A stretch of DNA of 50,953 bases from IMG/VR virus record IMGVR_UViG_3300032305_001455, positions 1 through 50,953 of that record. The stretch is one strand, 5' to 3'. This stretch comes from a virus. Lineage: Duplodnaviria; Caudoviricetes. The position numbers and the translations under genes were made by a program. Shown here in pieces: positions 876 through 50,632 of the stretch (its first letter is position 1; each line of letters starts with the position of its first letter). A model generated the notes under the pieces. The model had not been told where the DNA came from. It did not search any database and worked only from the letters and a program-made list of their open reading frames with translations.

Positions 876-1916
876 ATGAGCGACGAAGAAGTCGAGGACG
901 TTGGCGTCGAGTCTTCAGCACCGGCCGATGAATCGGCAGCGCCTGCTGAGTCCGAAGGGCAGGCAGTCGAGCAGGCCGCCCCGCCGCAGCAAGAGGTCTG
1001 GTCGGCGTTCCGCCAGTTGCCCGAGTTCCAAGGGCAGGAAGACCGGGCCATTGCCCAGCGGCTGTACGAAGCAATGCAGCGCGAGGGGGCCGCAGCCCGC
1101 GCCCTCCAGCAGTACCAGAGCATCGTTCCGGTCGCGCAGGACTACCTGTCGAATCGCGAGGCGTTTGAGCAGTGGCGGGCGCATCAGGCGCAGGCCAAGG
1201 CCGCCCCTGCCCATGCCCCTGCCCCGCAGCCCGAGCAGCCGGGCTGGTGGAACCCGCCGAAGATCAAGGAATCCTACAAGCGCTACATCGTCCGCGACGA
1301 GAACGGGCGAGAAGTCATCTCCCCAGACGCGCCGTTCGATGTCCGGGCCTCGCTGGAGGAGTACCAGCAGTACCGGGCCGAGTTCGCGCAGAAGTTTCTG
1401 GAGAACCCGGAGCAAGCGCTGGGGCCGATGGTCGAGAAGGTCGCGATGGAGCGCGCCCAGAAAATCGTAGACGATCGCATGGAGCGCATGCAGAACGAGT
1501 CCTACGTCTCCAGTTTAGAGCGGGAAAACCGCGATTGGCTGTATGACGAGCAAGGCAATGTGTCTGCGGAAGGACTTGCTGTCCAGAAATACATACAGGA
1601 TGCCAAGAGTTTGGGCATCAACGGCGCGCAGGCGCGCTGGGACTTCGCGACAAAGATGGTTGAGCGGGACTTGATGCTCGCCACCATTCAGCAGTCGCAA
1701 CAGGCCCAGCAACCCCAGCGGCCAATGCCAGTTCCCCAGCAACCACAACAGCCGCAACCGACAGCCGAACAGCAAAACATGGCTTACCTGCGACAGCAGG
1801 CCATGCGAACTGCAAGCCAGAGGTCGGCCACCACCACTGCCGCTAGAACGCCCCAGAAGTCCATGACCTTTGAAGAGCGGCTACTCGCCGCCGCTCAAGA
1901 AGAAGGGCTTCTGTAA
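876..1916 (+). CDS. Capsid scaffolding protein
   Basis: Acidic disordered N-terminus, Q/A/E-rich helical body and short C-terminal helix (KSMTFEERLLAAAQEEGLL). Directly upstream of the capsid gene. Confidence 0.7.
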   Translation: MSDEEVEDVGVESSAPADESAAPAESEGQAVEQAAPPQQEVWSAFRQLPEFQGQEDRAIAQRLYEAMQREGAAARALQQYQSIVPVAQDYLSNREAFEQWRAHQAQAKAAPAHAPAPQPEQPGWWNPPKIKESYKRYIVRDENGREVISPDAPFDVRASLEEYQQYRAEFAQKFLENPEQALGPMVEKVAMERAQKIVDDRMERMQNESYVSSLERENRDWLYDEQGNVSAEGLAVQKYIQDAKSLGINGAQARWDFATKMVERDLMLATIQQSQQAQQPQRPMPVPQQPQQPQPTAEQQNMAYLRQQAMRTASQRSATTTAARTPQKSMTFEERLLAAAQEEGLL

Positions 1917-1938
1917 CCCGCGAAGGAGTTAGACGCAC

Positions 1939-3090
1939 ATGGCAAGCCCCACTGATTGGTCGCGCGTTATCGCCACGACGATCGTCAACCACCTGCGGGA
2001 AACCGAGGAGGCGACGTTCCGCAAGTTCAAGGTGTTCGCGCTGCTGGAGCAGTCGGGCAACGTCGTGATGAATCAGTCAGGCAGGGGCTTCGACTGGAAT
2101 GTCCGCTGGCAAAATGCCCCCGTGACCGGAAACACCGGAGACACGCCGCGCACCTTCTCGCGCGTCAACATGTGGAAGCGCGCCGAGTTGCCGTGGCGCG
2201 GCTTCACGACCACCGACTCGATCTACCGGCGCGAGATGCTGGAGAACCGAGGCCAGCAGGCGCTGGTCGATGTCGCAGGGAAAATGGCCGAGCGGCTTCA
2301 GGAGTCGCTTGAGCAGCACCTGTCGTACCAGCCCTACCGGGACGGCAACGCGAGCGGCGCGGAGAACGACTTTCACGGCATGGAATCGTTCCTGTCGTAT
2401 GACGGCACCGTGAACGAGACTGCTTCGGGCGTGGCCGACAAGCGCACCAGCAGCAACACGGGCGACCGCTACGGCTACCCGAACGACACCTACGCCGGGC
2501 TGTCCACGCAGTTGGGCTTCTACGGCGGCGGTCGGATCGGCGGCGGGACGGGCCGGTGGCCCAACACGCCGGTCGATCCTTCCCTCGACTTCTACAGCCC
2601 GGTGATCATCAACTACAACGCGACCACGTTCAACGGAGCCGGTGGCGGCCAGAACTGGAAGTCGAACTGCGTGTTCGCGATGCGTGAAGGCATCCACCAG
2701 TGCAAGCGGAACGACACGAAGGAAGCGCAAATCGACCTCGTCGTTCTCGACCGCTCGCTCTACATCCAGTTCCTGAACACCTACAAGGATCAGGAGCGGA
2801 TCATGGTGAGCAAGGAGAACGGCCTGAAGGCGCTGGGCTTCAGCGATGTCGTGACCCTCGACGGCGTCGAGATCACTTCGGAGTACGCCGTTCCCGCTGG
2901 CAAGGGCTACGGCCTGTCGGTCGGCAACATGGAACTGCGGTGTCTCGAAAATCAACTGATGGTCGCTGAAGGCCCGTTTTTCGCGGAAGAAACGCAGTCC
3001 TACAGGTACGCCTGCTCGACTCTCGGCAACTTCCGCTTCCGGTCGCCGCGTAACTTCTTCCTCCTCGCCCCCGTCACCGCTGCTTCCTGA
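1939..3090 (+). CDS. Major capsid protein (HK97 fold, podophage-type family)
   Basis: 383 aa with AAGGAG RBS. The pattern ATTI..., AELPW, SI.R.E.LENRG.QALVD, YRDGNASG.ENDFHG resembles podophage major capsid proteins as recalled. Follows the scaffold gene. Confidence 0.85.
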   Translation: MASPTDWSRVIATTIVNHLRETEEATFRKFKVFALLEQSGNVVMNQSGRGFDWNVRWQNAPVTGNTGDTPRTFSRVNMWKRAELPWRGFTTTDSIYRREMLENRGQQALVDVAGKMAERLQESLEQHLSYQPYRDGNASGAENDFHGMESFLSYDGTVNETASGVADKRTSSNTGDRYGYPNDTYAGLSTQLGFYGGGRIGGGTGRWPNTPVDPSLDFYSPVIINYNATTFNGAGGGQNWKSNCVFAMREGIHQCKRNDTKEAQIDLVVLDRSLYIQFLNTYKDQERIMVSKENGLKALGFSDVVTLDGVEITSEYAVPAGKGYGLSVGNMELRCLENQLMVAEGPFFAEETQSYRYACSTLGNFRFRSPRNFFLLAPVTAAS

Positions 3091-3107
3091 TAAGGAGTAC
3101 CGCAAGC

Positions 3108-3686
3108 ATGTCGAGCATCTTCAGTGATCCGTTCTTCCGCCGTGGCAACACGCTGCTGAGTGGCGAGGCCATCGAACTCGATGCCTCCAGCAACCCGGTC
3201 GCGGGCAACGAGATTGTCGGTCAGGTCAAGGCGTTTCAGGATGTGAATCCTGTGGGCGCGGGCGAGCGGTACAGCAACCGCCTCGTCTACTGCGTGGCCG
3301 CCCGGTACAAGGGCAGCACCGTCAACGACGCTTCGACCGTCGCGGGCCAGTTGTACCTGTTCGATACCGGCAAGCCGTTGACCGAGTTCACCGACAAGGC
3401 GTCCTCGACCAACGCCACGGCTGGCCTCGCCATCGGCGTGCTGGACGAGTACCTGACCGGCACCCTGCGTCAGAACGACATCGTCTGGCTGGTGATGAAG
3501 GGGCCGACCAGCATCAAGCAGACCGCCGTGGCGATCAGCGCGGGCGTGGCCGTGCAGGCTTCCGCGACGGCTGGCTCGATTGCCGTGCTTTCGACGGGCA
3601 TCGCCATCGCCCAGCAGATCGTCGGCGCTGCCACCTCCGCTGCGGCGGGCCTGACCCGAGTGAATCTGTACAGCGACCAAATCTGA
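3108..3686 (+). CDS. Capsid decoration/cement protein
   Basis: Small A/G/S/T-rich beta-type protein right after the MCP, with TAAGGAG RBS and followed by a terminator. Confidence 0.6.
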   Translation: MSSIFSDPFFRRGNTLLSGEAIELDASSNPVAGNEIVGQVKAFQDVNPVGAGERYSNRLVYCVAARYKGSTVNDASTVAGQLYLFDTGKPLTEFTDKASSTNATAGLAIGVLDEYLTGTLRQNDIVWLVMKGPTSIKQTAVAISAGVAVQASATAGSIAVLSTGIAIAQQIVGAATSAAAGLTRVNLYSDQI

Positions 3687-6298: not shown

Positions 6299-8294
6299 CA
6301 ACCCGCTGCGGCAGATCGTCACGACTTGGGTGAAGAAACTCAAGGCGGCTGAAAAGTACAAGAAGCCGTTCAGTGACGATGCCAAGGAAGCCAGCCAGTT
6401 CTTCGACGGCGAACACAACTGGATGTGGCGGGACGCCTACGCCCGTGGCGAGCGGGGGTACAACTCGTCCATTGCCCCGCCCTCGTTCAGGATGCAACTG
6501 AACAAGGTATTTGAACTGGTCGAGATTTTCGCCAGTGTCATCTACCACCGTAATCCGGTGCGCACTGTCACAGTGATGAACCCGCCGGAGTTCCCACTGA
6601 AGCACGTGGGATTGGATGAGCCAGCCGGGCCAAACGGCCAGCCCAGCCCGGAGCAGATGCAAGTCATCCAAGCCGTGCAGGCCGAGCAGGCCCAGCGCGA
6701 GCAGATGAAGTTGATCGCGCAACTGATGGAGGCGTACCTGAACTGGACGCCCGTCGAACTCGACCTCAAGCGGCAGGCCCGCAAGGTGGTGAACGAGGCG
6801 ATGATCAAGGGCGCTGGCGTGTTCTGGACAGAACTGGTCAGCGTCGAGGTGTCGAGCGACGGCAGCATCCCGCCGATGAAACTGGTCGGCTCGTTCTATG
6901 ACACGGTGGACAACCTCCTCATCGACCCGGACTTCGACAACGAGGATGACATGCTCTGGTGCGCGCGGAAGTGCGTGCGCCCGATTGAAGAGGTGGCCGC
7001 TACATTCGGCGTGCCGGTCGAGCATCTGCGCAAGCATCACGACAACACCGACAACACGCTGCGCCGCGAGCCGAAGGGCAAGAAGAAGAAGGACACGACC
7101 AACGAACTGGTCACCTTCTACAAGATTTGGTCGAAGTGCGGCATGGGCGACCGCTTCAAGGACGCACCCAAGGGCAGTCGCGGTGTGTTCGATTCGGTCG
7201 GCCAGTACTGCTATCTGGTGGTCTGCGAGGGTGTTGAGTACCCCTTAAATCTCCCGCCATCCCTGATGCAGGAGATCGTAGACCCGGAACTGGGCATCCC
7301 GCCCGAGGTCATCCCGCGCGTCAGTTGGCCGATCCCGTTCTTCGCGGACACCAACGGCTGGCCGTTCACGATGCTGGCCTTCCACCGCAAGCCCGGCTAC
7401 GCATGGCCGGTGTCGCACATCCGCCCGGCGATTGGCGAGTTGCGGCTGCTGAACTGGTGCTTCTCGTTCCTCGCCACCCGGATCGCGACCAGTTGCGAAA
7501 CGATTGTCGCCGTGCAAAAGGCTGCGGACGAGACGATCAAGGAGCAACTGCTGGCCCCATCCGAGGGCGGCTTCAAGATTCTGGAGTTGAGCGAACTGCT
7601 TGGTCGCAGGATCGAGGACGTTGTGTCGGTGTTCCAGATGCCGCAAGTCACGAAGGACTTGTGGGACATCATCTCCGCGATCTTGGACGAGTTCGCGAAG
7701 CGCACGGGCTTGAGCGAACTGGCCTACGGTTACACCAGAAGTTCCTTCCGGTCGGCGGCAGAAGCCCAGATCAAGAACGAGAACATCAGCATCCGCCCGG
7801 ACAACATGGCGAACGAGTTGGAGGACACCATGTCTGTCCTCGCTCGCCGCGAGGCGTTGGCCGCACGGTGGCTACTGGAGCCGCAGGACATCGCCCCGGT
7901 GCTTGGCCCGATGGGCGCTGCGGCGTGGGCGCAGTTCATCAACAAGCGCGATCTGGTGGGCCTGACCCGCGAACTGCTGTACCGGGTCGAGGCGGGCAGC
8001 GCCCGCAAGCCGAACAAAGCCTCGCGCGTCGAGCAGATGCAGATGGCCGTGCAGACGCTGGGGCCGATCCTGTCGCAGTTGGCTGGCTCCGGCATGATCG
8101 AGCCGTTCAACGCGCTGATGAAGGATTGGGCCGACTCGCTCGACATCGATGCGTCTCCGTACTTGCTGCCTCCGCCACCTCCCCCCCAGCCCCCTGCCGC
8201 GCCGCCCGGCCTCCCCTCCCCACCGGAGCAGGCTGCGGCGGGGGCTGGCCCTCCTCCGCCACAAGTACCGGCTGAACTGATGCCGGGAGGCTGA
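6276..8294 (+). CDS. Portal protein
   Basis: 672 aa, downstream of terL. Has the pattern TGLSELAYG...RSAAEAQIKNEN and a Pro/Gln-rich C-tail, as in podovirus portals. Confidence 0.8.
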   Translation: MQESLPSSNPLRQIVTTWVKKLKAAEKYKKPFSDDAKEASQFFDGEHNWMWRDAYARGERGYNSSIAPPSFRMQLNKVFELVEIFASVIYHRNPVRTVTVMNPPEFPLKHVGLDEPAGPNGQPSPEQMQVIQAVQAEQAQREQMKLIAQLMEAYLNWTPVELDLKRQARKVVNEAMIKGAGVFWTELVSVEVSSDGSIPPMKLVGSFYDTVDNLLIDPDFDNEDDMLWCARKCVRPIEEVAATFGVPVEHLRKHHDNTDNTLRREPKGKKKKDTTNELVTFYKIWSKCGMGDRFKDAPKGSRGVFDSVGQYCYLVVCEGVEYPLNLPPSLMQEIVDPELGIPPEVIPRVSWPIPFFADTNGWPFTMLAFHRKPGYAWPVSHIRPAIGELRLLNWCFSFLATRIATSCETIVAVQKAADETIKEQLLAPSEGGFKILELSELLGRRIEDVVSVFQMPQVTKDLWDIISAILDEFAKRTGLSELAYGYTRSSFRSAAEAQIKNENISIRPDNMANELEDTMSVLARREALAARWLLEPQDIAPVLGPMGAAAWAQFINKRDLVGLTRELLYRVEAGSARKPNKASRVEQMQMAVQTLGPILSQLAGSGMIEPFNALMKDWADSLDIDASPYLLPPPPPPQPPAAPPGLPSPPEQAAAGAGPPPPQVPAELMPGG

Positions 8295-8722
8295 TGCCGC
8301 CCTGCCAGCACAAGCGCCGCAGCAACCTCTGGGTGCGCTACCGCGTGACTCAAGAGGAGTACGAAGCCCTGCACAGCAAGTGCCGGGGGAAGTGCCAGAT
8401 ATGCGGGCAGAAGCAAAGCACACTCTGTGTCGATCACTGTCATCACACCAAGGGCATTCGCGGCCTGCTGTGCAGTCCGTGCAACCGCGCCATTGGGATG
8501 CTGGGCGATACCGAGGAAACCCTGAAGCGAGCGTGGGACTACCTGTATGAGTACGAACGATCTGCCTTTCGACATTCAGCGCGCCAGCGACGAAATACAG
8601 GCGCACTACCTCGACATGGTCGCCAACGGAGTGGCCCCAAGGCTGGCCGAGATGCTTGCTCTCCAGCAGCCCCCCGGACTGCGAGGCACGGACAGGGCGC
8701 TCATGGAGGGTCGGCTAAATAA
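8294..8722 (+). CDS. Endonuclease VII-family (His-Me finger) nuclease, probably a homing endonuclease
   Basis: Motifs RYRVTQEEYEAL, CQICG, VDHCHHTKGIRGLLCSPCNRAIGMLGD. The domain ends near 8550 and the tail overlaps the next gene. Confidence 0.88.
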   Translation: MPPCQHKRRSNLWVRYRVTQEEYEALHSKCRGKCQICGQKQSTLCVDHCHHTKGIRGLLCSPCNRAIGMLGDTEETLKRAWDYLYEYERSAFRHSARQRRNTGALPRHGRQRSGPKAGRDACSPAAPRTARHGQGAHGGSAK

Positions 8723-34539: not shown

Positions 34540-35033
34540 TGCTGTACCTCAACGACGCATCCACCGTGGTGGTCATCGGCCCTCCCGGTAGCGGCAAGAG
34601 TTACGTGGCCCATCTGCTTGCCGAACACAGCGGCCTGCCCGTTTACTGCACGGACAAGTTTCTGGGAGACGGGCACGTGGCCGCGCTATACGGCTTGATG
34701 CAAGCAGTTGGCGACGATGGCTGGATCGTGGAGGGGATGATTGGCTACCGCTTTTTGCGCAAGCGCAAGCAGTTGAAGTTGCCTGCTCCTGACATCGTGA
34801 TCCAACTCAATGCCAGCGATGAGCAGATCGCACGGGCGTATGCAGCGCGAGGCAAGCCGTGCAACATCAAGGTGCTGCGGAACTTTTGCGCGGCTCACGA
34901 AAAGGTGATGAGCGACTACCTTCTGCTCGATGGCGAGGAACCCAAGATTTGGGTACACGCCAACAGTTACCACCTCTGTCACCTGATCGGCGGCGGCCCG
35001 TCTGGCACAGGGCAGAGCGAGGCATCCACGTAG
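34536..35033 (+). CDS. P-loop kinase (nucleoside monophosphate kinase-like)
   Basis: VVVIGPPGSGKS Walker A, TDKF, WIVEG and DIVIQLNAS..IAR topology. Start placed at the ATGA overlap. Confidence 0.8.
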   Translation: MMLYLNDASTVVVIGPPGSGKSYVAHLLAEHSGLPVYCTDKFLGDGHVAALYGLMQAVGDDGWIVEGMIGYRFLRKRKQLKLPAPDIVIQLNASDEQIARAYAARGKPCNIKVLRNFCAAHEKVMSDYLLLDGEEPKIWVHANSYHLCHLIGGGPSGTGQSEAST

Positions 35034-35827
35034 TGACGCTGTACCAAAGTTGGTACGGAGTGCTGTAGGTAGCGCCACGATTCGCCCGGACTACGCATCT
35101 CGATGTAGGTCGCAGCAGCGCGGCGCAGGTACTTGCTGGAGCCGCGTATCTTTTGCCTGTCGAGAAAACCCCGGATCGCCAGCAGCGCGCGGCGGCGCGT
35201 CAGGAACCACGTGAACAGCGAGCCATCGGGTGATTCACTGATCAAGCGCTGCGCCCATTCCTGCCCATGCCCGGACAGTGGCCTGACCAACGCCTTGCCT
35301 GTCTTGTGTGCCGTGCTTGCGATGCACCCGTTGCGAAGGTTGCTGTCACGCAGTTCAAGCACATCGCTGAACCGCATTGCGGTGTCATACGCGATCACGA
35401 TCCACCCCGGAAACCACTCGCATACCCTGCGGTTGGCATGCCCTCCGATGCGCGTCTGGTCTGCCTCTGCTCGCGTCAGCATCAGCCGCAGATCGGCCAG
35501 CGACCACGCCTCAACAGGTCTGGCAGCAGCCTTGATCCTCATCACCCGCATCGGCGGCGTCTCGGTCAGCCCTTCTTCAAATGCCCACTTCCATAACGTC
35601 AGGAGTTCTCGCCGCACATTTTGCCGGGTCACGGCTGACGTTGACAGGCTAGAGAGAAATCTGTTCACTACTGCTGGCTTGAGGTCGGCCACGGTGCCGA
35701 CGCCAGCCGCCTCGGCTTGCCGCACGGTGCGGCGGAGGGATTCGCAATAGCGGTCGCTGCATTCGCGGCTACCGCAATACAGGCCAAGGAGTTCGGCCAA
35801 CCGCATAATGCCAGTGGTACTCAACAT
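34979..35827 (-). CDS. int: Tyrosine recombinase/integrase
   Basis: Catalytic set TAMRFSD (R), HKTG (K), KYLRR (HxxR variant), LQHS (H), HYVD (Y), with a SAM-like N-terminal domain. Start uncertain (35875, 35827 or 35806). Confidence 0.88.
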   Translation of the reverse strand: MLSTTGIMRLAELLGLYCGSRECSDRYCESLRRTVRQAEAAGVGTVADLKPAVVNRFLSSLSTSAVTRQNVRRELLTLWKWAFEEGLTETPPMRVMRIKAAARPVEAWSLADLRLMLTRAEADQTRIGGHANRRVCEWFPGWIVIAYDTAMRFSDVLELRDSNLRNGCIASTAHKTGKALVRPLSGHGQEWAQRLISESPDGSLFTWFLTRRRALLAIRGFLDRQKIRGSSKYLRRAAATYIEMRSPGESWRYLQHSVPTLVQRHYVDASLCPVPDGPPPIR

Positions 35828-35869
35828 GGGGGATTGTTTCCAAAAATGCACCCTCCCTGAGAACTGGCA

Positions 35870-35882
35870 AATCAAAAGGTTG
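35870..35882 (+). promoter_or_regulatory. IHF-consensus site in the putative attP arm
   Basis: AATCAA-AAGG-TTG matches WATCAANNNNTTR exactly, about 50 bp from the tRNA-like core. Confidence 0.5.
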
Positions 35883-35912
35883 GTCTAGCCCCCCAGATAC
35901 GGAGGTTCAGAC

Positions 35913-36806
35913 ATGACGATTGTTCCGGCCACCGGCTTCATAAGCCGGGGGTCGCGAGTTCAAGTCTCGCCGCTGCTAGTAGACCCGTCCGTTTCGATTT
36001 GCCACACCCCAGCCGCGTCCTATCACGGCTGGCCGGAGGTGTCGTGCAGCAACCTGAAACTGCTGCGCGAATCACCGCTGGCATACTACTGGCGGCAAGT
36101 CGCCAAGGCCGCCCCGCCCCGGTCGAGTGATGCCCTCGACTACGGCTCGCTCCTTCATTCGTGGGGGGAGTTGGGGGAAAAGGAGTTCTGGCCCCGCGTC
36201 GAAGTCTGCCCGGACACTCTGGCAACTGCTGCCGGAGCGTTCTCCGCCAAGGCCGCCGATTGGAAGGCGAACCTTGATCCGGCGCGCATCCCGGTATGCC
36301 CGGCTGACTACAAAAAGTTGCGTGATCAGACACGGGCGTTGCTCGCCAACTCTGATGTCACCACGATCATCGAGCGGGCCATCGATGCGGAGTTCAACAT
36401 CAAGTGGCAGTGGAACGGCCACGCCTGTCGTTGCCGCGTGGACGGCGCCACGCCCGACTACTTCTTCGATTGGAAGACAACGCGGGACGAGAACCCGGCA
36501 CGTGAGTGGTGGCGCAGCGCGCTAAAGTTTGGCTACCACTTGCAGAGCGCGATGTATGAGTCGGCTGGCCTTGCCGCAGGCTGGCCTGCCCATCGCATGG
36601 TCTTCATCGTCACCTCGACGGTGTGGCCCTATGAGAGCGTTGTTGGCCCGCTGCCGCAGCGCGTGATCGACCACGGTCGCAGCGAGTGTCTGCGCCTGCT
36701 GGATGAGTTGCAGATGCGACTCGACTTGGACTGCTGGCATCGCCTCGATGCCCGTGGAGTGGAGGAGATTTATTTCCCGAGTTATGCCCTGAAAGGAGAG
36801 GTCTGA
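35913..36806 (+). CDS. RecE-like PD-(D/E)XK exonuclease (DUF3799 type)
   Basis: GGAGGT RBS 6 nt before the ATG. Motifs YH...SCSNLK, GSLLH, E...W...CRCRVD...DWKTT and GYHLQSAMY. Confidence 0.88.
   Translation: MTIVPATGFISRGSRVQVSPLLVDPSVSICHTPAASYHGWPEVSCSNLKLLRESPLAYYWRQVAKAAPPRSSDALDYGSLLHSWGELGEKEFWPRVEVCPDTLATAAGAFSAKAADWKANLDPARIPVCPADYKKLRDQTRALLANSDVTTIIERAIDAEFNIKWQWNGHACRCRVDGATPDYFFDWKTTRDENPAREWWRSALKFGYHLQSAMYESAGLAAGWPAHRMVFIVTSTVWPYESVVGPLPQRVIDHGRSECLRLLDELQMRLDLDCWHRLDARGVEEIYFPSYALKGEV
35930..35978 (+). mobile_element. attP: Putative attP core: 3' portion of a tRNA with CAT anticodon (elongator Met or Ile2 type)
   Basis: Anticodon arm CCGGC-TTCATAA-GCCGG (35932-35948), variable loop GGGTC, T-arm GCGAG-TTCAAGT-CTCGC (35954-35970), acceptor 3' strand CGCTGCT-A. 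No D-arm or matching 5' acceptor strand upstream. About 100 bp from the integrase start. Confidence 0.85.
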
Positions 36807-37555
36807 TGCCAAGGATTGGAAACATCGCCGTGTCTGTTCTTCGCGAGGAGAGCAGCACCACGGGCGCTCTGGTGGAGGCGCTTTGCTCCGCCCATCCCGA
36901 GTTCCCTCCGGTGCCTCTCGATTCCAAGGGAAGCCGCGACGGTCACTCCTACCGCTACGCCTCGATCTCTGCGATCCGGCGTGCGGTGATGCCTGCTCTC
37001 GCCAAGCACGGCATCTGGATGAACCACCTGTATGGCGAGAACGAGGGCGGCGACTACGTCGTGACGATGCTCCGCCACAAGACGGGCGAGTACATCACCT
37101 CGACGCTTCGCATCCCGCACCTCGCTGATGTGCAGGAGCGGAAGGCGGCGATGACGTTGCTCTGTCGCACGGCCATCGAGGGGCTGCTGTCCATCTCCAC
37201 CGAGGAGGACACCGACGCGCAGGGCGTGGCGGAACACTCCGGCGTGGACGAGGCAACCCAGAAGAAGTGGAAGACCAACATGGAAATCGCGGAGGCAGCA
37301 GTCGCGCTTGCCACCGATGACGCCACGTTGGCGCGGTACGTAAACGTGGCGAAGCAGCGTGTGCAGTCTGGGGCCATGCCCCCGGACGCAGTCGAGCGGA
37401 TCGAGTCCCTGTGTCAGAAGCGAAGCACCCACCTGAAGGAGAAGACCAATGCTGGAAACGAAGGAACTGTTGGAGATCAAGGCGAGGATGCTGCTGGCGG
37501 CGGAGGCGGCGTGGAGGATCGCAAGCGAAGGCGGGCAGTGGGAACTGGAGCCTGA
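36806..37555 (+). CDS. ERF-family single-strand annealing protein
   Basis: YRYASISAI...PALAKHGI, VTMLRHKTGEYI and EEDTDA. TGATG-coupled to the exonuclease. Confidence 0.85.
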   Translation: MPRIGNIAVSVLREESSTTGALVEALCSAHPEFPPVPLDSKGSRDGHSYRYASISAIRRAVMPALAKHGIWMNHLYGENEGGDYVVTMLRHKTGEYITSTLRIPHLADVQERKAAMTLLCRTAIEGLLSISTEEDTDAQGVAEHSGVDEATQKKWKTNMEIAEAAVALATDDATLARYVNVAKQRVQSGAMPPDAVERIESLCQKRSTHLKEKTNAGNEGTVGDQGEDAAGGGGGVEDRKRRRAVGTGA

Positions 37556-37989: not shown

Positions 37990-39564
37990 GTGCAGGGCGC
38001 AATGGATTGGATGGATGAGGAGTGGACAACGAGGCTGTCGCCCACGACGGCCTACAAGCCACGCCCGTATCAGTCGGAAGCAGACCGCCGTGTGTTTGAG
38101 GTGCTTCAGTCAACTGACCGCACCGCTCTCTACATGGCGACCGGCTGCGGGAAAACCGAAACCGCCGCCTTGCTACTGCAAAGAGATTGGGGCCATGCCT
38201 GCGATCTCTTCATCACGCCCCGGAGGGAGTTGGTGCGTCAGTCTGCTGACCGCCTTCGCCTCCGGGGCGTGGAATGCGGCATCGAGATGGCGGAGCAGCG
38301 GGCCGATGGCGACGGCGTTGTCGTGGCCTGCTACGCCAGCCTGCAAAGCCGCAAGCGCTACCAGCGATTCTTGGGCACGGTTGGCCTGATCATCGTTGAC
38401 GAGAGCCACCTGAACTACAGCCCGGCTGCGCTTCAGATGCTGGCGGAGTTCCGATCCTTCGGGGCGAGGGTGGTCGGCATGACCGCATCGCCGCCGACAT
38501 CGAAGGAGCATTCGCTTGAGGAGCATTACGGCCAGCCCGCCTACGTGTATGACTACGCGCAGGCAGTGGCCGATGGCTACCTCGTCGGCTGCAAGATGCA
38601 CCTTTGCGTCCTGCAAGACCTCGACCTCACCCGGTTCAAGGCTTCGTTCGGTGACTTCGACGCCGCTCGCCTCGACCGGCTGATGCGGCAGAAGAGCAAC
38701 GTCGCCTGGGTGGCGGCGATGATCGAGCAGTACTGGGAGGGCCAGCCCAGCGTGGTGTTTGCGTCTTCGATCCAGCATGCGGAGGCCGTGCGTGATGACC
38801 TGATGAGCCGCAACATTGGCGCGTCGATTATCCACAGCAGGATGGAGCAGGAGGAGCAGCAACTGCACCTCTCGGACTTCATGTCCGGTCGGACGCAACT
38901 CATTATCAACGTGGGCATCCTGACACTGGGGTGGGATGCACCAAACGTCCGCAAACTTTTCATGGCCCGGCCTACCGCCAGTACCTGTCTCTACCTCCAG
39001 ATGTTCGGGCGAGGCACGCGCACGCTGCCGGGAGTGATCGACGGCCTCTCAAGCGTGGAGGCCCGGCTGGCCGCTATCGCTGCCTCCGACAAGCCCTGCT
39101 TTGAGGTGTATGACATCACGGACAGCAGCCGCCACAACGATCTGAAGACGGCTCTGTCGATCCTCCGGCCATCGCTCGATGACCGGCTGATGAAGCGGGT
39201 GCGCAACCGCATCATGCGGAAGCCCGTCAATGCCGTGGAGATGGACGCGCTGATCGAGGAGGAGCGCCGCATCCTCGCCGCCCAGCAGGCGGAACTCGAC
39301 CGGGCCGAGATGGCAAAGCGCAACCATATCAGGGTGGACGGCACGGTAACGGCGTATGAGCGGGACGCGATGGCCGACGCCGAGGGCCGCCCCGGCACGC
39401 GCCGCACCACCGACTACTGGTGGATGCCATACGGGCGATTCAAGGGCAGAGGCTTCAAGCAGATTCACCAGCAAGCGCCGTGGTATCTGCGCTCGATCCT
39501 GCCCCACGTGCGCGATGAGGGGCTGGCGAGGAACATCAGGAAGTTCCTCGCTGGCCGCTCTTGA
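37990..39564 (+). CDS. Superfamily 2 DExH helicase with C-terminal DUF3820-like domain
   Basis: Q-motif PRPYQ, MATGCGKT, IVDESH, GMTASP, LTLGWDAP, QMFGRGTR, and C-terminal MPYGRFKG. Confidence 0.92.
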   Translation: MQGAMDWMDEEWTTRLSPTTAYKPRPYQSEADRRVFEVLQSTDRTALYMATGCGKTETAALLLQRDWGHACDLFITPRRELVRQSADRLRLRGVECGIEMAEQRADGDGVVVACYASLQSRKRYQRFLGTVGLIIVDESHLNYSPAALQMLAEFRSFGARVVGMTASPPTSKEHSLEEHYGQPAYVYDYAQAVADGYLVGCKMHLCVLQDLDLTRFKASFGDFDAARLDRLMRQKSNVAWVAAMIEQYWEGQPSVVFASSIQHAEAVRDDLMSRNIGASIIHSRMEQEEQQLHLSDFMSGRTQLIINVGILTLGWDAPNVRKLFMARPTASTCLYLQMFGRGTRTLPGVIDGLSSVEARLAAIAASDKPCFEVYDITDSSRHNDLKTALSILRPSLDDRLMKRVRNRIMRKPVNAVEMDALIEEERRILAAQQAELDRAEMAKRNHIRVDGTVTAYERDAMADAEGRPGTRRTTDYWWMPYGRFKGRGFKQIHQQAPWYLRSILPHVRDEGLARNIRKFLAGRS

Positions 39565-45148: not shown

Positions 45149-45664
45149 ATGCCCCGCCGACTGACCGCAGCGCAGCAGGCGCTGGCGGAAGACTCGCTGC
45201 GATTCGTGCAGCCCACGATAGCGGTGTTCGTGCGCCGCAACCCTGACCTCCGCCCGTCCATCCGGCGGGTGGACATGGAACAGGTTGCGCAGGTGGCGGT
45301 GTGCATGGCCGCCTTCACGTTCGACCCCAAGAAGTCGAAGCCCACCACGTACTTCAGCAGCGCGATCCGCCACGCGCTGTACCGGGCGGTGTTGACCCAG
45401 CAGAAACTCGATGGGCGCTACGTGCCGACCGAGTCGATCACCGATCCGCCGACGAACCGGAGCCGCACGCGAGCAGAGATGCGTGCGATGCGGGCGTTGA
45501 GAAGTCTGTCGGCGTATGACCGCAGGCTGCTAGAGGACAGGCTGATCGAGCAAGTGACGCTTGAGCAACTGTCGAGCGAGCAGCGCTGCGATCCACGCAC
45601 GATAGGGAAGCGGGTGCAGCGGGCAATCGAGCGGCTACGTGGAGCCGAGAGCGATCTCCCCTGA
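45149..45664 (+). CDS. Sigma-70 family (region 2 + region 4) sigma factor
   Basis: Region 2-like AAFTFDPKKSKPTTYFSSAIRHAL and region 4-like LSAYDRRLL...TLEQLS...RTIGKRVQRAIERLR. Confidence 0.8.
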   Translation: MPRRLTAAQQALAEDSLRFVQPTIAVFVRRNPDLRPSIRRVDMEQVAQVAVCMAAFTFDPKKSKPTTYFSSAIRHALYRAVLTQQKLDGRYVPTESITDPPTNRSRTRAEMRAMRALRSLSAYDRRLLEDRLIEQVTLEQLSSEQRCDPRTIGKRVQRAIERLRGAESDLP

Positions 45665-46420
45665 CGCCCAGAGGCGGGAGAACTCTTCCTGCGAGGTGAT
45701 CAGGGGATACCCCGCCTCCCTCGCCCGCAGTGCCCATCGCACGTAGGCCGGGTGGGCGAACTTCCTGCCCGGCTTGGTGGCGAACTGGGACTGCGTGGCG
45801 CACCAGCAGGCGATCTCATCGGCGGATAGCCCCTCGTCCTCCAGCGTCTGCATGAAGTCCACGTACTTCCGCTCGGAAGGGTCAACGCGGTACGCCTTAG
45901 ACAGCCGATCCCCCACCGTGCGCCACCCGATGGGGGCACACCGCGAGAACGGCAGGCCAGCCTCCCGCTTGGCGGCGTTGTCCCGCTTCATCTTGCGTGA
46001 CAGCATGCGCCGGTACATGTGTGCGTACAGCACCATGTTCGACTCCAGCATGTCATACAACTCCTCGTCGCCCTCAAGGCCAGACAGATCGGGGAGGTCA
46101 AGCACCGCGCGCCTGATCCCTTTGCGATCCAACTGGTCGAGCGTGACGAACCCGTCCACCTTCGCCCGGAACAGGCGATCCATCGCAGCGACCACAAGGT
46201 AGTCGCCCTTCTGGAGCGAGAAGAACACGGTGCGTCCCTGCTCCCGCTCGCTGAACAACGTGCCGCCGGAGGTGGCGGAATCGTAGAAGAACCCAGCCCA
46301 CTCCACGCCCTTGCTCTTGAGGTGGGCATCGTAGTACTCACGACATGCCCGCTCCTGCACTTCGCGGGTCATCCCCTGCTTGCTGGTACTGGCCCGTCCG
46401 TAAGCGTAGCACTTAGCCAT
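45635..46420 (-). CDS. Serine recombinase (resolvase/invertase catalytic domain with short recombinase-like tail)
   Basis: YGRASTSKQ (catalytic Ser), DSATSG, MDRLFR and APIGW. GGAGGAG RBS. Confidence 0.9.
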   Translation of the reverse strand: MAKCYAYGRASTSKQGMTREVQERACREYYDAHLKSKGVEWAGFFYDSATSGGTLFSEREQGRTVFFSLQKGDYLVVAAMDRLFRAKVDGFVTLDQLDRKGIRRAVLDLPDLSGLEGDEELYDMLESNMVLYAHMYRRMLSRKMKRDNAAKREAGLPFSRCAPIGWRTVGDRLSKAYRVDPSERKYVDFMQTLEDEGLSADEIACWCATQSQFATKPGRKFAHPAYVRWALRAREAGYPLITSQEEFSRLWASGEIALGST

Positions 46421-47231: not shown

Positions 47232-48482
47232 TCAACCGGCATAGGTAGGCACCTCCTTCGTGCAATCGATCACCTTGGCCCACGCGGGCGGCTGCGAATA
47301 ACCAGACTTCTTGACCAGTGCAATGATCAGCCGCGCCCGTGTTGGGCGTGAAGGCCATTGCGTTTCACCGTCCGTTACCAACACGATGGCATCGGGCCGA
47401 TGCTCCCGATCCTCCTGCTCAAGGGCGGCAGTCATGTCTGTCCCGCCATACCCCTTGAACGCAAACTCCGACAGGTGCGAGATGCGCTTCGCGGATTGCA
47501 GCCGCGAGTCGAACGCGATCACCCGTGGCCGCTGCACCTTGCGCAAACCCTGTGCTATGGCGGTCAATGCACGGGACTCCAGCCCCTGCATTGACCCGGA
47601 GGTGTCGATGATGATCGAACACTCCGGCGCCAGACGCACGTAGCCGCGCCGCCGGGCTGCGTCAGAGTCCTGCCTGCGACTGAGTCGCCGGTAGGTGTAC
47701 TCCTCCTGCCCGATAGGCGAGGCGACCGACCGGCCAACCACTGACCGCAGTTGGTCGAACGGGTCTGGCTGCGGATGCAACCGTGCCTCGACCGACTTCA
47801 GCAGTTCGCCCGGCACCGAACCGGGGCGAGTGCGATTCGCCTGCGTCATCTTCTTCTCGGCCTCACGCAAACAATGGTCTGCCATTGCGTGTTCTGCTGC
47901 CGACATGGGCTTCTCGTAATCCCGCTTCTGGCCGTCGCTATTGCTGCCAGAGTTAGCAGGATCAAGAGGATTGCCCTTCTGTTGCACGGGTTGTGCCGGT
48001 GCGTACTGCAACAGCAGTCCGTAGTACGCCTCGACTGTCATGCCGCGAACCAATCCGGGTATGTCGAGGAACCGGGTGGTTGTGCCCGGCACCACGCCAT
48101 CGATCCGAACAATGCCTGCGGGTTCATGCAGACCGTAGTAGTTCGCCAGCATCTGCTGGATCACCAGATCGGCTGCGATGTTCCACACCCATCGCTCCCG
48201 CTCTGTTGCCTGCGGCGCTATCGCCTTGAATCGGCGGCAGTGCGACAGCACCACGTGCATTACCTCATGCAGCAGGCAATACGCCAACTCCATAGGGGTG
48301 ATGCTCTCCATGAACTCGCGATTGCAATACAGGCGATTGGCCTGATCGACCGCCATCGTGGGCACCTCCTCCGTTTCCACGGTGCGCATCATGGCAAAGA
48401 TATGCGTCAGGTAGGGCACCCAAGAACGCAACTTCAGTTTGGCCTTGGTGAGTAGGCGCTGGACTGTCGATAGCGTCTTCAT
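47232..48482 (-). CDS. VWA-domain protein with N-terminal HExxH metallopeptidase-like domain (DUF2201 type)
   Basis: PTMAVD, LLHEVMHVVL, WNIAADLVI, MIDAS DTSGS, GGTDM and VTDG. Confidence 0.9.
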   Translation of the reverse strand: MKTLSTVQRLLTKAKLKLRSWVPYLTHIFAMMRTVETEEVPTMAVDQANRLYCNREFMESITPMELAYCLLHEVMHVVLSHCRRFKAIAPQATERERWVWNIAADLVIQQMLANYYGLHEPAGIVRIDGVVPGTTTRFLDIPGLVRGMTVEAYYGLLLQYAPAQPVQQKGNPLDPANSGSNSDGQKRDYEKPMSAAEHAMADHCLREAEKKMTQANRTRPGSVPGELLKSVEARLHPQPDPFDQLRSVVGRSVASPIGQEEYTYRRLSRRQDSDAARRRGYVRLAPECSIIIDTSGSMQGLESRALTAIAQGLRKVQRPRVIAFDSRLQSAKRISHLSEFAFKGYGGTDMTAALEQEDREHRPDAIVLVTDGETQWPSRPTRARLIIALVKKSGYSQPPAWAKVIDCTKEVPTYAG

Positions 48483-49570
48483 GCGGCACCTCCGATCTGG
48501 GCAACCAACTTGCCGTAGCGAGACAGCAACTTCTTCGGCACGCGATACGACGAGTACTTGTTGGTGAGATCAGCAAGCACCGGGCCAACGCAGTCGAGCA
48601 ACCCGTTCTCGCCCATCTCGACCAGCACATCGAACGCATTGTCGAGACGCTTGGCCGAATGATCTGCGTCCAGAGTCTCCATGATCCCCACGGGCAGGAA
48701 CACCAACTGATCCACGCGATCACCCCCGTAGTCCAGCGTGACCTTCTTGTCCACCACTTCGGCGGGATCGTACAAGTCCTTGGCAGCAATGCTTTGCATC
48801 AACTGCCCGGCACCCGCACTACCCACCATCCCGGTCGCGATCTGGTTGATCACATCGCCGCCAGCCTTGACCTTGTCCGCACCGGCAAGGCACAGCGCAA
48901 GTTTGTGCCACTGCCGCAGAGATGGGAATGCCTTCTCGACATCGGGAATCTGCTTGCACGTGCGCAACGCAGGCTGACGCTGCAACAGGTAGGCCACACG
49001 CCGTGTCCACTTGGGGACGTAGGCAGAGGTATCGCCCACAATGGGGAAGTTAGCGGGCAAGGCAAACTGACCGCCGTTCATCATGCCCTCCATCCACGTG
49101 TCGAATGGCACCTCCCAATCGTGGTGATACAGGCGGTTCAACATCGATGCCTCCAGCGGGCTGGAGTTGGGCGCCAACTCTGGGGGATTGGCGCACGCCA
49201 CACGCAGCGTCGAAGGGTGCAGGCGCAGGTCGCCAACCCGTCCCTCGTTAAGCAGCGATAGCAGCGCTGGCCGCATGGACTGCGGGGCGGTAGTGAGTTC
49301 ATCAAAGATGATGCCCCACCCCGCCTGCGTCATGCGCACCAGCCACTCAAGGTGAACCATCCGTGCGATGCCAGACTTCTTGTCGATGTCGGGCATGCCG
49401 CCAATGTCTTCAGGCATGTGCTGCGATGGGATGAAGACAAAGGGCTTCAACCCTAGCGCACGCATCAACGCCTCAAGGTAGGCGGTCTTGCACTCACCTG
49501 TTCCGCCCCACGCAATAGCGGACATGCCGCATTGCATCACGATATACAGAGCCGCATTCAAACAGTCCAT
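48479..49570 (-). CDS. MoxR-type AAA+ ATPase
   Basis: Variant Walker A WGGTGECKT, PEDIGGMP, Walker B IIFDEL, sensor ACANP and Arg finger LNRL. Confidence 0.85.
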   Translation of the reverse strand: MDCLNAALYIVMQCGMSAIAWGGTGECKTAYLEALMRALGLKPFVFIPSQHMPEDIGGMPDIDKKSGIARMVHLEWLVRMTQAGWGIIFDELTTAPQSMRPALLSLLNEGRVGDLRLHPSTLRVACANPPELAPNSSPLEASMLNRLYHHDWEVPFDTWMEGMMNGGQFALPANFPIVGDTSAYVPKWTRRVAYLLQRQPALRTCKQIPDVEKAFPSLRQWHKLALCLAGADKVKAGGDVINQIATGMVGSAGAGQLMQSIAAKDLYDPAEVVDKKVTLDYGGDRVDQLVFLPVGIMETLDADHSAKRLDNAFDVLVEMGENGLLDCVGPVLADLTNKYSSYRVPKKLLSRYGKLVAQIGGAA

Positions 49571-49635
49571 GACTGCATCCTTTCAAGTGAAGCCACCTAG
49601 CCACGGTGGCAGAAATCAAAACCGTCGATCCGCAA

Positions 49636-50529
49636 TCACGCCAACGCCTGAAGCGCGGCCTCCCCGATCTTCTCGCGAGCCAGCCGTGCGGCCTTGGCTA
49701 CGTGCGCAAACGCCTTGCCAAGCAATCCCTTGTTGCGCTGCAACGTCTCCTCGGCAGCGATCCATTCCTCCAGCCGGGTCTGCTGCCCATTGCTGCGTGG
49801 CTTGGCGCCGCGCTGATGGAGGTCATCCATGTCATTGATCTGCCCATTGAACACAGCAAGGCTGCGCTTGATCAGTTCATCCGACACGTGCTGGATCAAT
49901 GACTTGTTCACGACCGGGCGGAACCGCACGATCAACATCTTCACGCCGTGCGGCGCAAGCGCATCCGCCACGGACTCGTAATCCTTCAGCGATTCTTCGG
50001 GCATGTACCACACTACGCCCTCGTCGCGCAGCAGGAAGCCGCACGAATCCTTGACAAGGCCGGTAATCGCCTGAGTCAGGTCATTGGCTGATAGATAATC
50101 ACAGGCTTGCCGCCAGTACTGATCGGCTTGCGCCTCCACCTTTGCCTTGTGTGCCGCAATCTGCGGACACGCAGTGGCGTCAACGTCCAGTAGTTCCACC
50201 CGGTAGGAACCATCGCTCTGTTTCAGCGCGCCCACCGAGAACAAGAACGGCAGATCGTTGCGGGTAGTACCGCGCACGAACCGCCGTGCCTCGACAGCAA
50301 CGGAACCGCTATGCCCAGACAGGCCATACGGTTTGACCGGGCCGCCGTCGTACACATTGTGCGTGGCCGCGACCTCCTCGACCGCCTTCTTCAAAGCAGC
50401 AAAATGATCGGGCTTGGGCACCAAGTTCTCCTTGCCAATCGCAGCAAACGCACCCTCGGCAATCGAGCGCAAGATGCGGGCGCTACTCCAGAAAACAATC
50501 GCCTTGTCGCCGTCAATCGTGTGTGCCAT
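49636..50529 (-). CDS. Hypothetical protein of the kind that accompanies MoxR/VWA pairs (DUF3150/DUF6744-like)
   Basis: GGAGGT RBS, IVFWS, LRDEGVVWYMP, helical C-terminus and gene context. Confidence 0.55.
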   Translation of the reverse strand: MAHTIDGDKAIVFWSSARILRSIAEGAFAAIGKENLVPKPDHFAALKKAVEEVAATHNVYDGGPVKPYGLSGHSGSVAVEARRFVRGTTRNDLPFLFSVGALKQSDGSYRVELLDVDATACPQIAAHKAKVEAQADQYWRQACDYLSANDLTQAITGLVKDSCGFLLRDEGVVWYMPEESLKDYESVADALAPHGVKMLIVRFRPVVNKSLIQHVSDELIKRSLAVFNGQINDMDDLHQRGAKPRSNGQQTRLEEWIAAEETLQRNKGLLGKAFAHVAKAARLAREKIGEAALQALA

Positions 50530-50632
50530 CGGGCACCTCCTTCCTGTGTGTATGCGGGTCACCTACCAAGGTGCCCACCCTGTCAAGAGCGGCGCTGGCA
50601 GTCCGCTACCAGCCCCATCTACCCCCTGTGGG

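Follow-up and report, generated by a model that had tools for sequence, protein, structure and literature searches.

The locus studied here raises the question of what integration would do to a lytic gene whose first codons lie on a likely phage attachment site. The window, i.e. the whole stretch of DNA analysed, is a linear virus record of 50,953 nt from IMG/VR (IMGVR_UViG_3300032305_001455) with a completeness rating of 87% and 62.6% G+C. Genes of virion type occupy its left part, those for recombination and replication its right part. An integrase gene and a RecE-like gene are divergent, with 106 nt between them and no repressor or cro-type gene in that gap. The two genes are neighbours in mid-record and stand among phage genes, an arrangement that supports the record as the unintegrated form of the phage; the preliminary description, made from the sequence alone, had likewise taken it for the excised form. 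The features of the locus are:

34979..35806, minus strand: tyrosine integrase, 275 aa, with core-binding and catalytic domains and no arm-binding domain; ATG at 35806
35865-35877 and 35992-36004, no strand assigned: 13-nt imperfect inverted repeat flanking the core; possible accessory sites (weak)
35901..35906, plus strand: Shine-Dalgarno (SD) site GGAGGT of the RecE-like gene, ending 6 nt upstream of its ATG; the duplex with a generic anti-SD has an energy of -10.2
35913..36806, plus strand: RecE-like exonuclease VIII (DUF3799, PD-(D/E)XK), 297 aa; opens the replication-recombination block
35913..35936, plus strand: RecE-like codons 1-8, which would go to attR on integration, the place of crossover being judged from L030 and from the second core copy in L092
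35930..35978, plus strand: tRNA-CAT 3' half, likely attP core region, equal to codons 7-22; intact tRNAs with the same half in L093 and in X3 and X6 contigs
35937..35943, plus strand: anticodon loop, probable 7-bp strand-exchange region (from L030 and L092), codons 9-11
36806..37555, plus strand: ERF-like single-strand annealing protein; its start overlaps the RecE stop, and its own SD site lies at 36793-36798
37990..39564, plus strand: superfamily 2 helicase (ResIII, Helicase_C and DEAD matches), in the same block as RecE and ERF

Elsewhere in the window, a DUF2201 metallopeptidase/VWA gene and an AAA_5 ATPase gene occupy 47232-50562 (minus strand) and are present in G002 too. An Endonuclease VII gene, perhaps a mobile endonuclease, lies directly behind a portal-like gene (8294-8722, plus strand).

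The likely attP core is 49 nt long (35930-35978) and has the anticodon CAT. Its anticodon stem (35932-35936/35944-35948) is fully paired around the loop (35937-35943) and is followed by a variable loop of 5 nt, a T-arm (35954-35970), the 3' acceptor strand (35971-35977) and the discriminator (35978). A structural rule for tRNA 3' halves gave one match in the window, at this place, and matched 2 of 200 order-1 Markov samples of the window. The Rfam tRNA model scored the core at 24.8 bits, under its cut-off of 29, and the 5' half did not fit; ARAGORN found no tRNA anywhere in the window. This structure confirms the preliminary description, which had reported a tRNA-CAT anticodon arm, variable loop, T-arm and 3' acceptor strand with no 5' half, beside an integrase. 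From these sequence features, the half is likely to be the attP core of a tyrosine integrase that targets a tRNA. The core lies ~125 nt upstream of the integrase start, and not inside the integrase gene as in the SSV1 type. For the inverted repeat around it there is a weak parallel among the relatives described below: an exact inverted match of at least 8 nt was found in 13/34 loci, with a mean of 7.1 vs 6.4 after shuffling.

The integrase matched PF00589 weakly (4.6e-05) and the PHROG integrase profile at 1.5e-12. R145, K171, R229, H249 and Y259 are invariant in 96/96 aligned integrase rows, and the second His position holds K/R or Y/W/F, a non-canonical substitution. The structural model (pLDDT 95.6) shows a four-helix domain from residue 3, then the catalytic domain. 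Three of the four best Foldseek matches were arm-less constructs of Tn1549 and lambda integrase (TM 0.71-0.78), and the residues before the core-binding domain number at most 52, mostly <20, in the 96 rows. Judged by the model, the integrase is a simple recombinase without an arm-binding domain, in the sense given in the accessible text of PMC8138268.

The RecE-like ORF (297 codons) is preceded by an in-frame TAG at 35886, and its codons 7-22 lie on the tRNA half. After the ATG at 35913, the next in-frame ATG, GTG or TTG is at 36039, past the YH motif. The ORF map thus confirmed three statements of the preliminary description: that the tRNA half is in frame within RecE at about codons 7-22, that a strong GGAGGT stands before the ATG, and that no ATG, GTG or TTG lies between core and YH. 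A short in-frame ORF at 35808-35888 is not retained in the X8 strain (A35808C). Pfam E-values were 5.5e-14 for DUF3799 (52.9 bits; cut-off 26) and 1.7e-10 for ERF, and phrog_412 matched the RecE-like protein at 1.7e-39. D177, D186, K188, Y208 and Q211 are kept in 60/60 aligned rows. By its sequence the ORF belongs to the DUF3799/exonuclease VIII family, and a nuclease is predicted. The conserved domain begins near codon 28.

Related loci were collected in sets of 16, 40, 80 and 14 and were kept if they had a RecE match of at least 37% or an integrase match. After loci with too little upstream DNA were dropped and duplicates were collapsed, 61 remained: 34 phage-form loci with a tRNA 3' half, 2 host-form loci, 12 integrase-less loci, 11 loci of a distant clade, and L070 and L083, which have an integrase and lack an intact half (in L070 a remnant of the anticodon arm is still in frame). 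Additions from a pattern set of viral contigs brought the 34 to 41 distinct phage-form loci with the half; loci without it are outside this count. In 41/41 of these loci, the RecE frame runs without a stop from an upstream start through the half, and in 31/41 that start has an SD of -5 or stronger; these are related loci and not independent trials, and the changes of target and of frame are the real replicates. The other two frames of the same loci gave 41, 17 and 4 of 82, open frames being the 41/82. No in-frame ATG lies between loop and YH in any of the 41; a GTG or TTG does in 12/41, none of them with an SD.

The anticodons of the 41 loci are CAT (26), GTG (6), CCC (6), GAC (2) and CGG (1), i.e. 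five tRNA targets, and two frames are in use. The frame that has a stop in the loop is used by none of the 26 CAT loci, and all six His loci use their single open frame, as do 10/10 in an overlapping set. In L015 and L080, the homologous SD-ATG lies 46 and 53 nt before the core, and the spacings behind the core are 22 and 27 nt; because the spacings differ on both sides, two frameshifts evidently cancel. A quick tree (SH-aLRT support only) makes the window the sister of L006 (97), which reads the other frame, and L015 the sister of L080 (92); it also puts 11 integrase-less loci together in a single nested clade (98). Among viral stretches with the CAT core pattern, RecE follows in 26/27 (duplicates included). 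Conservation of the open frame across the core, a check proposed at the outset, is therefore complete over the 41 loci, and on these sequences an open RecE frame through the tRNA half is a rule of the family, with the distant clade, L070 and L083 as exceptions.

Some loci have other layouts. L264 combines a related integrase with a tRNA-Gly 3' half, behind which come a stop and then a gene that has its own start, and in L164 a CAT half occurs without RecE; both are ordinary intergenic arrangements. In seven loci (L014, L019, L030, L036, L068, L074 and L076), one CATG holds both a plus-strand ATG in frame with RecE and the likely start of the integrase. No intergenic space is left there, so a promoter serving this RecE start would have to be within int. 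Compared with L092, L074 retains the host-type left stem of tRNA-Gly, with its TAG, and reads another frame; the other Gly loci have an altered left stem and read the frame that the host-type stem would close.

The same pattern was seen in proteins. Of 68 RecE homologues, 9 had too few residues before YH and were left out. A tRNA-coded peptide was present at the N-terminus of 50 of the 59 scorable homologues and absent from the other 9; the peptide is of the CAT tRNA in another frame in 34, in the query's frame in 5, and of tRNA-Gly type in 11. Met is absent from all 1,358 residues between the tRNA-coded peptide and YH, the starts themselves having been chosen by gene callers, so that the DNA counts above carry more weight. 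P0002 is 86% identical to the query and falls in its 90% cluster, yet has a Gly-type peptide; the start of P0246 falls inside the tRNA peptide, and P0048 starts with M directly ahead of YH (protein only). Six-frame tRNA translation gave scores of at least 40 for 27/49 close and 2/79 more distant 50%-cluster representatives, two of the 27 being at the threshold and possibly due to chance. Such N-termini are of use in annotation, since a protein sequence by itself can then point to an attachment site and to the host tRNA that is targeted.

At the protein level, RecE N-termini also carried the third frame of tRNA-Gly, a Gly 5' half (P0267) and antisense tRNA-Val (P0250, P0256, P0259); P0278 and P0257 were assigned by eye to the antisense tRNA-Val or tRNA 5'-half type. 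The antisense tRNA-Val layout was not recovered in DNA, where the viral scan gave sense Val types only. The antisense and 5'-half peptides suggest that the cut itself is kept, and not one orientation; if these layouts are confirmed in DNA, insulation from read-through would not be the sole reason for the cut.

Two loci resemble the product that integration would leave. In L093, an intact tRNA-Met is followed directly by ~65 start-less RecE codons and then by a methylase fragment. The surroundings look cellular (aldehyde dehydrogenase, LssY-like and MFS genes), and the only host evidence is one neighbouring protein, whose cluster includes entries named Pirellulales bacterium. In L092, an intact tRNA-Gly is followed by a start-less RecE stub, whose frame is also broken behind the tRNA, and by a Fic gene. 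By their sequence, both are decayed, attL-like scars of the predicted product, not prophages. The proposal that integration leaves RecE without a start behind an intact tRNA is thus matched by two scars, both decayed; an intact prophage was not found among the relatives, the viral contigs or the contigs of 8 runs. The L092 scar lies in a stretch (1200-3230) with ~1.9 kb between two tRNA-Gly core copies, which holds the RecE stub, the Fic gene and 20-bp tandem repeats and looks like a small element that reuses the attachment arm of this phage type.

The comparison of the core with cellular tRNAs gave intact tRNAs that match at 43/49 and 46/51 positions; the exact host gene was not found. The 43/49 match is the L093 tRNA, which differs from the window with compensated changes in the T-stem. 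The other is in X3 and X6 contigs: over 35930-35980 they differ from the window at 5 of 51 letters, and they run on into a tRNA 5' half with an acceptor strand that pairs with the window's. ARAGORN called the L093 tRNA Met; it is an elongator Met or an Ile2. Initiator tRNA-fMet is recognized by an unpaired 1:72 position and three G-C pairs closing the anticodon stem; it was rejected as the target because the L093 tRNA has G1-U72 and a different stem. The 5' half of the L093 tRNA puts a TAG in both frames of the CAT loci, and when the window frame is joined to it no start lies between the host TAG and the loop.

Tyrosine integrases at tRNA genes are known to cross over in the anticodon loop. 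In L030 the left stem is different as far as the loop, and in L092 the second copy of the core begins 2 nt ahead of the loop; from these two observations and the habit of the enzymes, we infer that crossover takes place in the loop here too.

Integration thus probably acts as a lock on the replication block, removing the upstream DNA, the SD and ~8 codons from RecE until excision. The sequence itself shows the geometry, how it is kept from one tRNA target and frame to another, and the scars on the host side; the regulatory role of the cut is what we infer. In the proposed mechanism, the arm-less integrase would recombine the anticodon loop with a host tRNA gene, and all upstream phage DNA, any promoter included, would move with int to attR. 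At attL, the rebuilt host tRNA would stand ahead of a start-less RecE, with an in-frame stop added before RecE by the host 5' half. A terminator cannot sit in a gene that is read during lytic growth, so the missing start would take over insulation: read-through from the tRNA promoter would not be translated and would likely be ended by Rho, if Rho polarity applies, or by tRNA processing. Induction would require excision first, which would rebuild the RecE start.

The regulatory scans agree in part with this mechanism. No terminator-like hairpin was found behind the tRNA half in 34 phage-form loci, which fits a site that needs read-through in lytic growth. A scan of 34800-36300 gave no promoter and no terminator, and k-mer enrichment between int and core gave G/C and T runs only. 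The preliminary description had also proposed that integration uncouples ERF; the ribosome site that ERF has of its own, AAGGAG, speaks against this. The lock may explain the silence of a prophage that lies behind a tRNA promoter at a place where no terminator fits, and int, attP and a RecE reporter would fit into ~1.1 kb, so it can be tested without a phage isolate.

A rather unlikely alternative is that the beheading of RecE is a by-product of an attP that happens to lie in a gene. The tRNA stretch would then be a tolerated linker, a repressor elsewhere would do the regulating, and the cut would have no regulatory value. In line with this, the residues of the peptide vary with the tRNA and its frame and are therefore of no importance, and the integrase-less relatives manage without it: in these 12 loci the tRNA piece is absent and RecE starts within about 70 nt of the domain. 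Against it, no downstream ATG was gained in the 41 phage-form loci, although such starts work in the 12 integrase-less loci, and the layout was kept through five tRNA targets and several frame changes. An integrase was not found in three integrase-less records (79, 32 and 19% complete). TTGAC occurs just upstream of RecE in 12/12 integrase-less loci (from the ranges L008-L010, L060-L065 and L071-L073, and L079) vs 2/34 phage-form loci, which suggests another promoter type in the temperate-type loci.

The distant clade also speaks for a by-product, as it would integrate and leave RecE whole. In its 11 integrase-bearing loci, RecE has its own SD and start behind an att-like piece, and a tRNA 5' half was seen by eye further upstream in 8/11 (L046-L059); Rfam, run on four of the loci, did not recognize these 5' halves. 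Integration would remove only upstream DNA in this clade and would hand the host tRNA to a phage promoter.

The evidence on repressors is divided. G003, G005 and G010 each have a small gene for a LexA-type DNA-binding protein, and a repressor may therefore do the regulating. Against this, profile searches gave no CI-like or LexA-type match in two genomes with a rating of 100% complete (G002 and G004), nor in the window; the window is incomplete, and such searches miss divergent repressors. Pfam searches for CI or S24 peptidase covered ORFs of up to 420 aa (73/73 in G005, 65/66 in G002, selected ORFs in G001, G003 and G004) and gave no match.

A wider reading can be offered tentatively: that this is a family of planctomycete phages whose lysogeny has no need of a repressor for the replication block, the arm-less integrase toggling a lytic gene between a whole and a beheaded form and recombination itself being the lysis-lysogeny switch, and whose frame has been re-threaded through at least five tRNAs, three frames and both orientations.

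It is very improbable that the tRNA half is an unused relic, with no integration at this site or with integration through a second recombinase. A candidate for the latter is a serine resolvase gene (PF00239, 261 aa, 45635-46420, minus strand), convergent with a small sigma-factor-like gene (45149-45664); it is present in the window and in 7/7 integrase-bearing relatives checked, and in 0/3 integrase-less records, incomplete ones. The failure to find junctions also favours a relic: the search for attL/attR joints, suggested in the preliminary description, gave none in the contigs of 8 runs (run X1, which may be where the window comes from, is not counted). Searches of viral contigs with three DNA patterns (27, 68 and 42 stretches) gave no intact tRNA directly followed by a RecE of this type, and the closest intact tRNAs differ at 5/51 or 6/49 letters. 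The core itself does not look decayed, however: its stems are fully paired and its T-stem differences are compensated on both strands. The catalytic residues are invariant in 96/96 integrases, scars exist at tRNA sites of the same kind, and of 33 differences of the X2 strain in 35400-36145, at most one falls within 35897-36052 (32 are listed, none of them there).

Further searches gave little on the host. A scan of genome contigs produced a single close match, a 58 kb contig in a MAG labelled Rubrivivax; it was rejected because it has the phage form and the other matching tRNAs of the MAG are 76-80% alike, so that it is likely mis-binned. Among 50,697 phage records 35 matched, each at <60% identity, so none was a close relative; plasmid searches gave one 85% tRNA piece and no integrase match.

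That RecE begins behind the core at a non-canonical CTG (35973) or ATT (35997), so that only a promoter is removed as in Tn916, is hardly credible: both codons are in frame, the conserved domain begins near codon 28 and the N-termini in the protein sets are gene-caller choices, but the strong SD-ATG is upstream and none is downstream, the frame is open in 41/41 loci vs 41/82 in control frames, stop-bearing frames are never used, and frameshifts around the core are compensated.

The lock resembles the integration-dependent immunity of BPs, Brujita, Charlie and M. abscessus MabN/MabB, in which attP lies in the repressor gene and integration strips a C-terminal degradation tag from the repressor, turning it on, according to the accessible parts of PMC4557955, PMC3694055 and PMC9934374. 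PMC8138268, in its accessible text, places IntBrujita among the simple recombinases. As in the BPs type, attP is within a phage ORF, recombination would toggle the gene between two forms, and a simple integrase without an arm-binding domain is present, with no Xis gene between int and attP. The difference is that attP here is in the first lytic replication gene, where an N-terminal cut would remove the start and switch RecE off. BPs has an int-rep-cro cassette with co-directional rep and int, whereas int here is divergent from the split gene. The BPs-type integrase reportedly carries an ssrA-like tag; the integrase here has none and most commonly ends in IR or IK (42/96 rows).

Other systems share parts of the layout. 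The att site of Mx8 reportedly lies inside its own integrase gene. SSV1 also has its att site inside a gene of the element that is split on integration, but that gene is the integrase (PMC5861418, as far as its accessible text describes it), whereas int here stays whole. In Tn916, the replication genes are silent when integrated, being parted from their promoter, and an insulator against host promoters is needed; Tn916 uses a terminator and antiterminator and keeps its genes whole, whereas here the coding sequence is cut and no terminator stands behind the core (PMC11658703, accessible part). The HTVC019P-group pelagiphages have a tRNA-piece attP between int and the first lytic gene, an RNA polymerase, and some of their tRNA pieces are 5' halves, like those of the distant clade here; the accessible text of 10.1101/410191 describes every one of their attP sites as non-coding. 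No description of an attP inside a lytic or RecE gene was found in the titles, abstract openings and passages that the literature search covered, mostly from open-access papers.

The layout is real and conserved and stands outside the BPs system, though it would work like its mirror image. Broussard and Hatfull regard site-specific recombination as the simplest route to two exclusive states and perhaps the ancestral lysogeny switch (PMC3694055, accessible part). If the lock is true, the locus is the mirror of the repressor-activating examples, acting straight on a lytic gene and in an unrelated host phylum.
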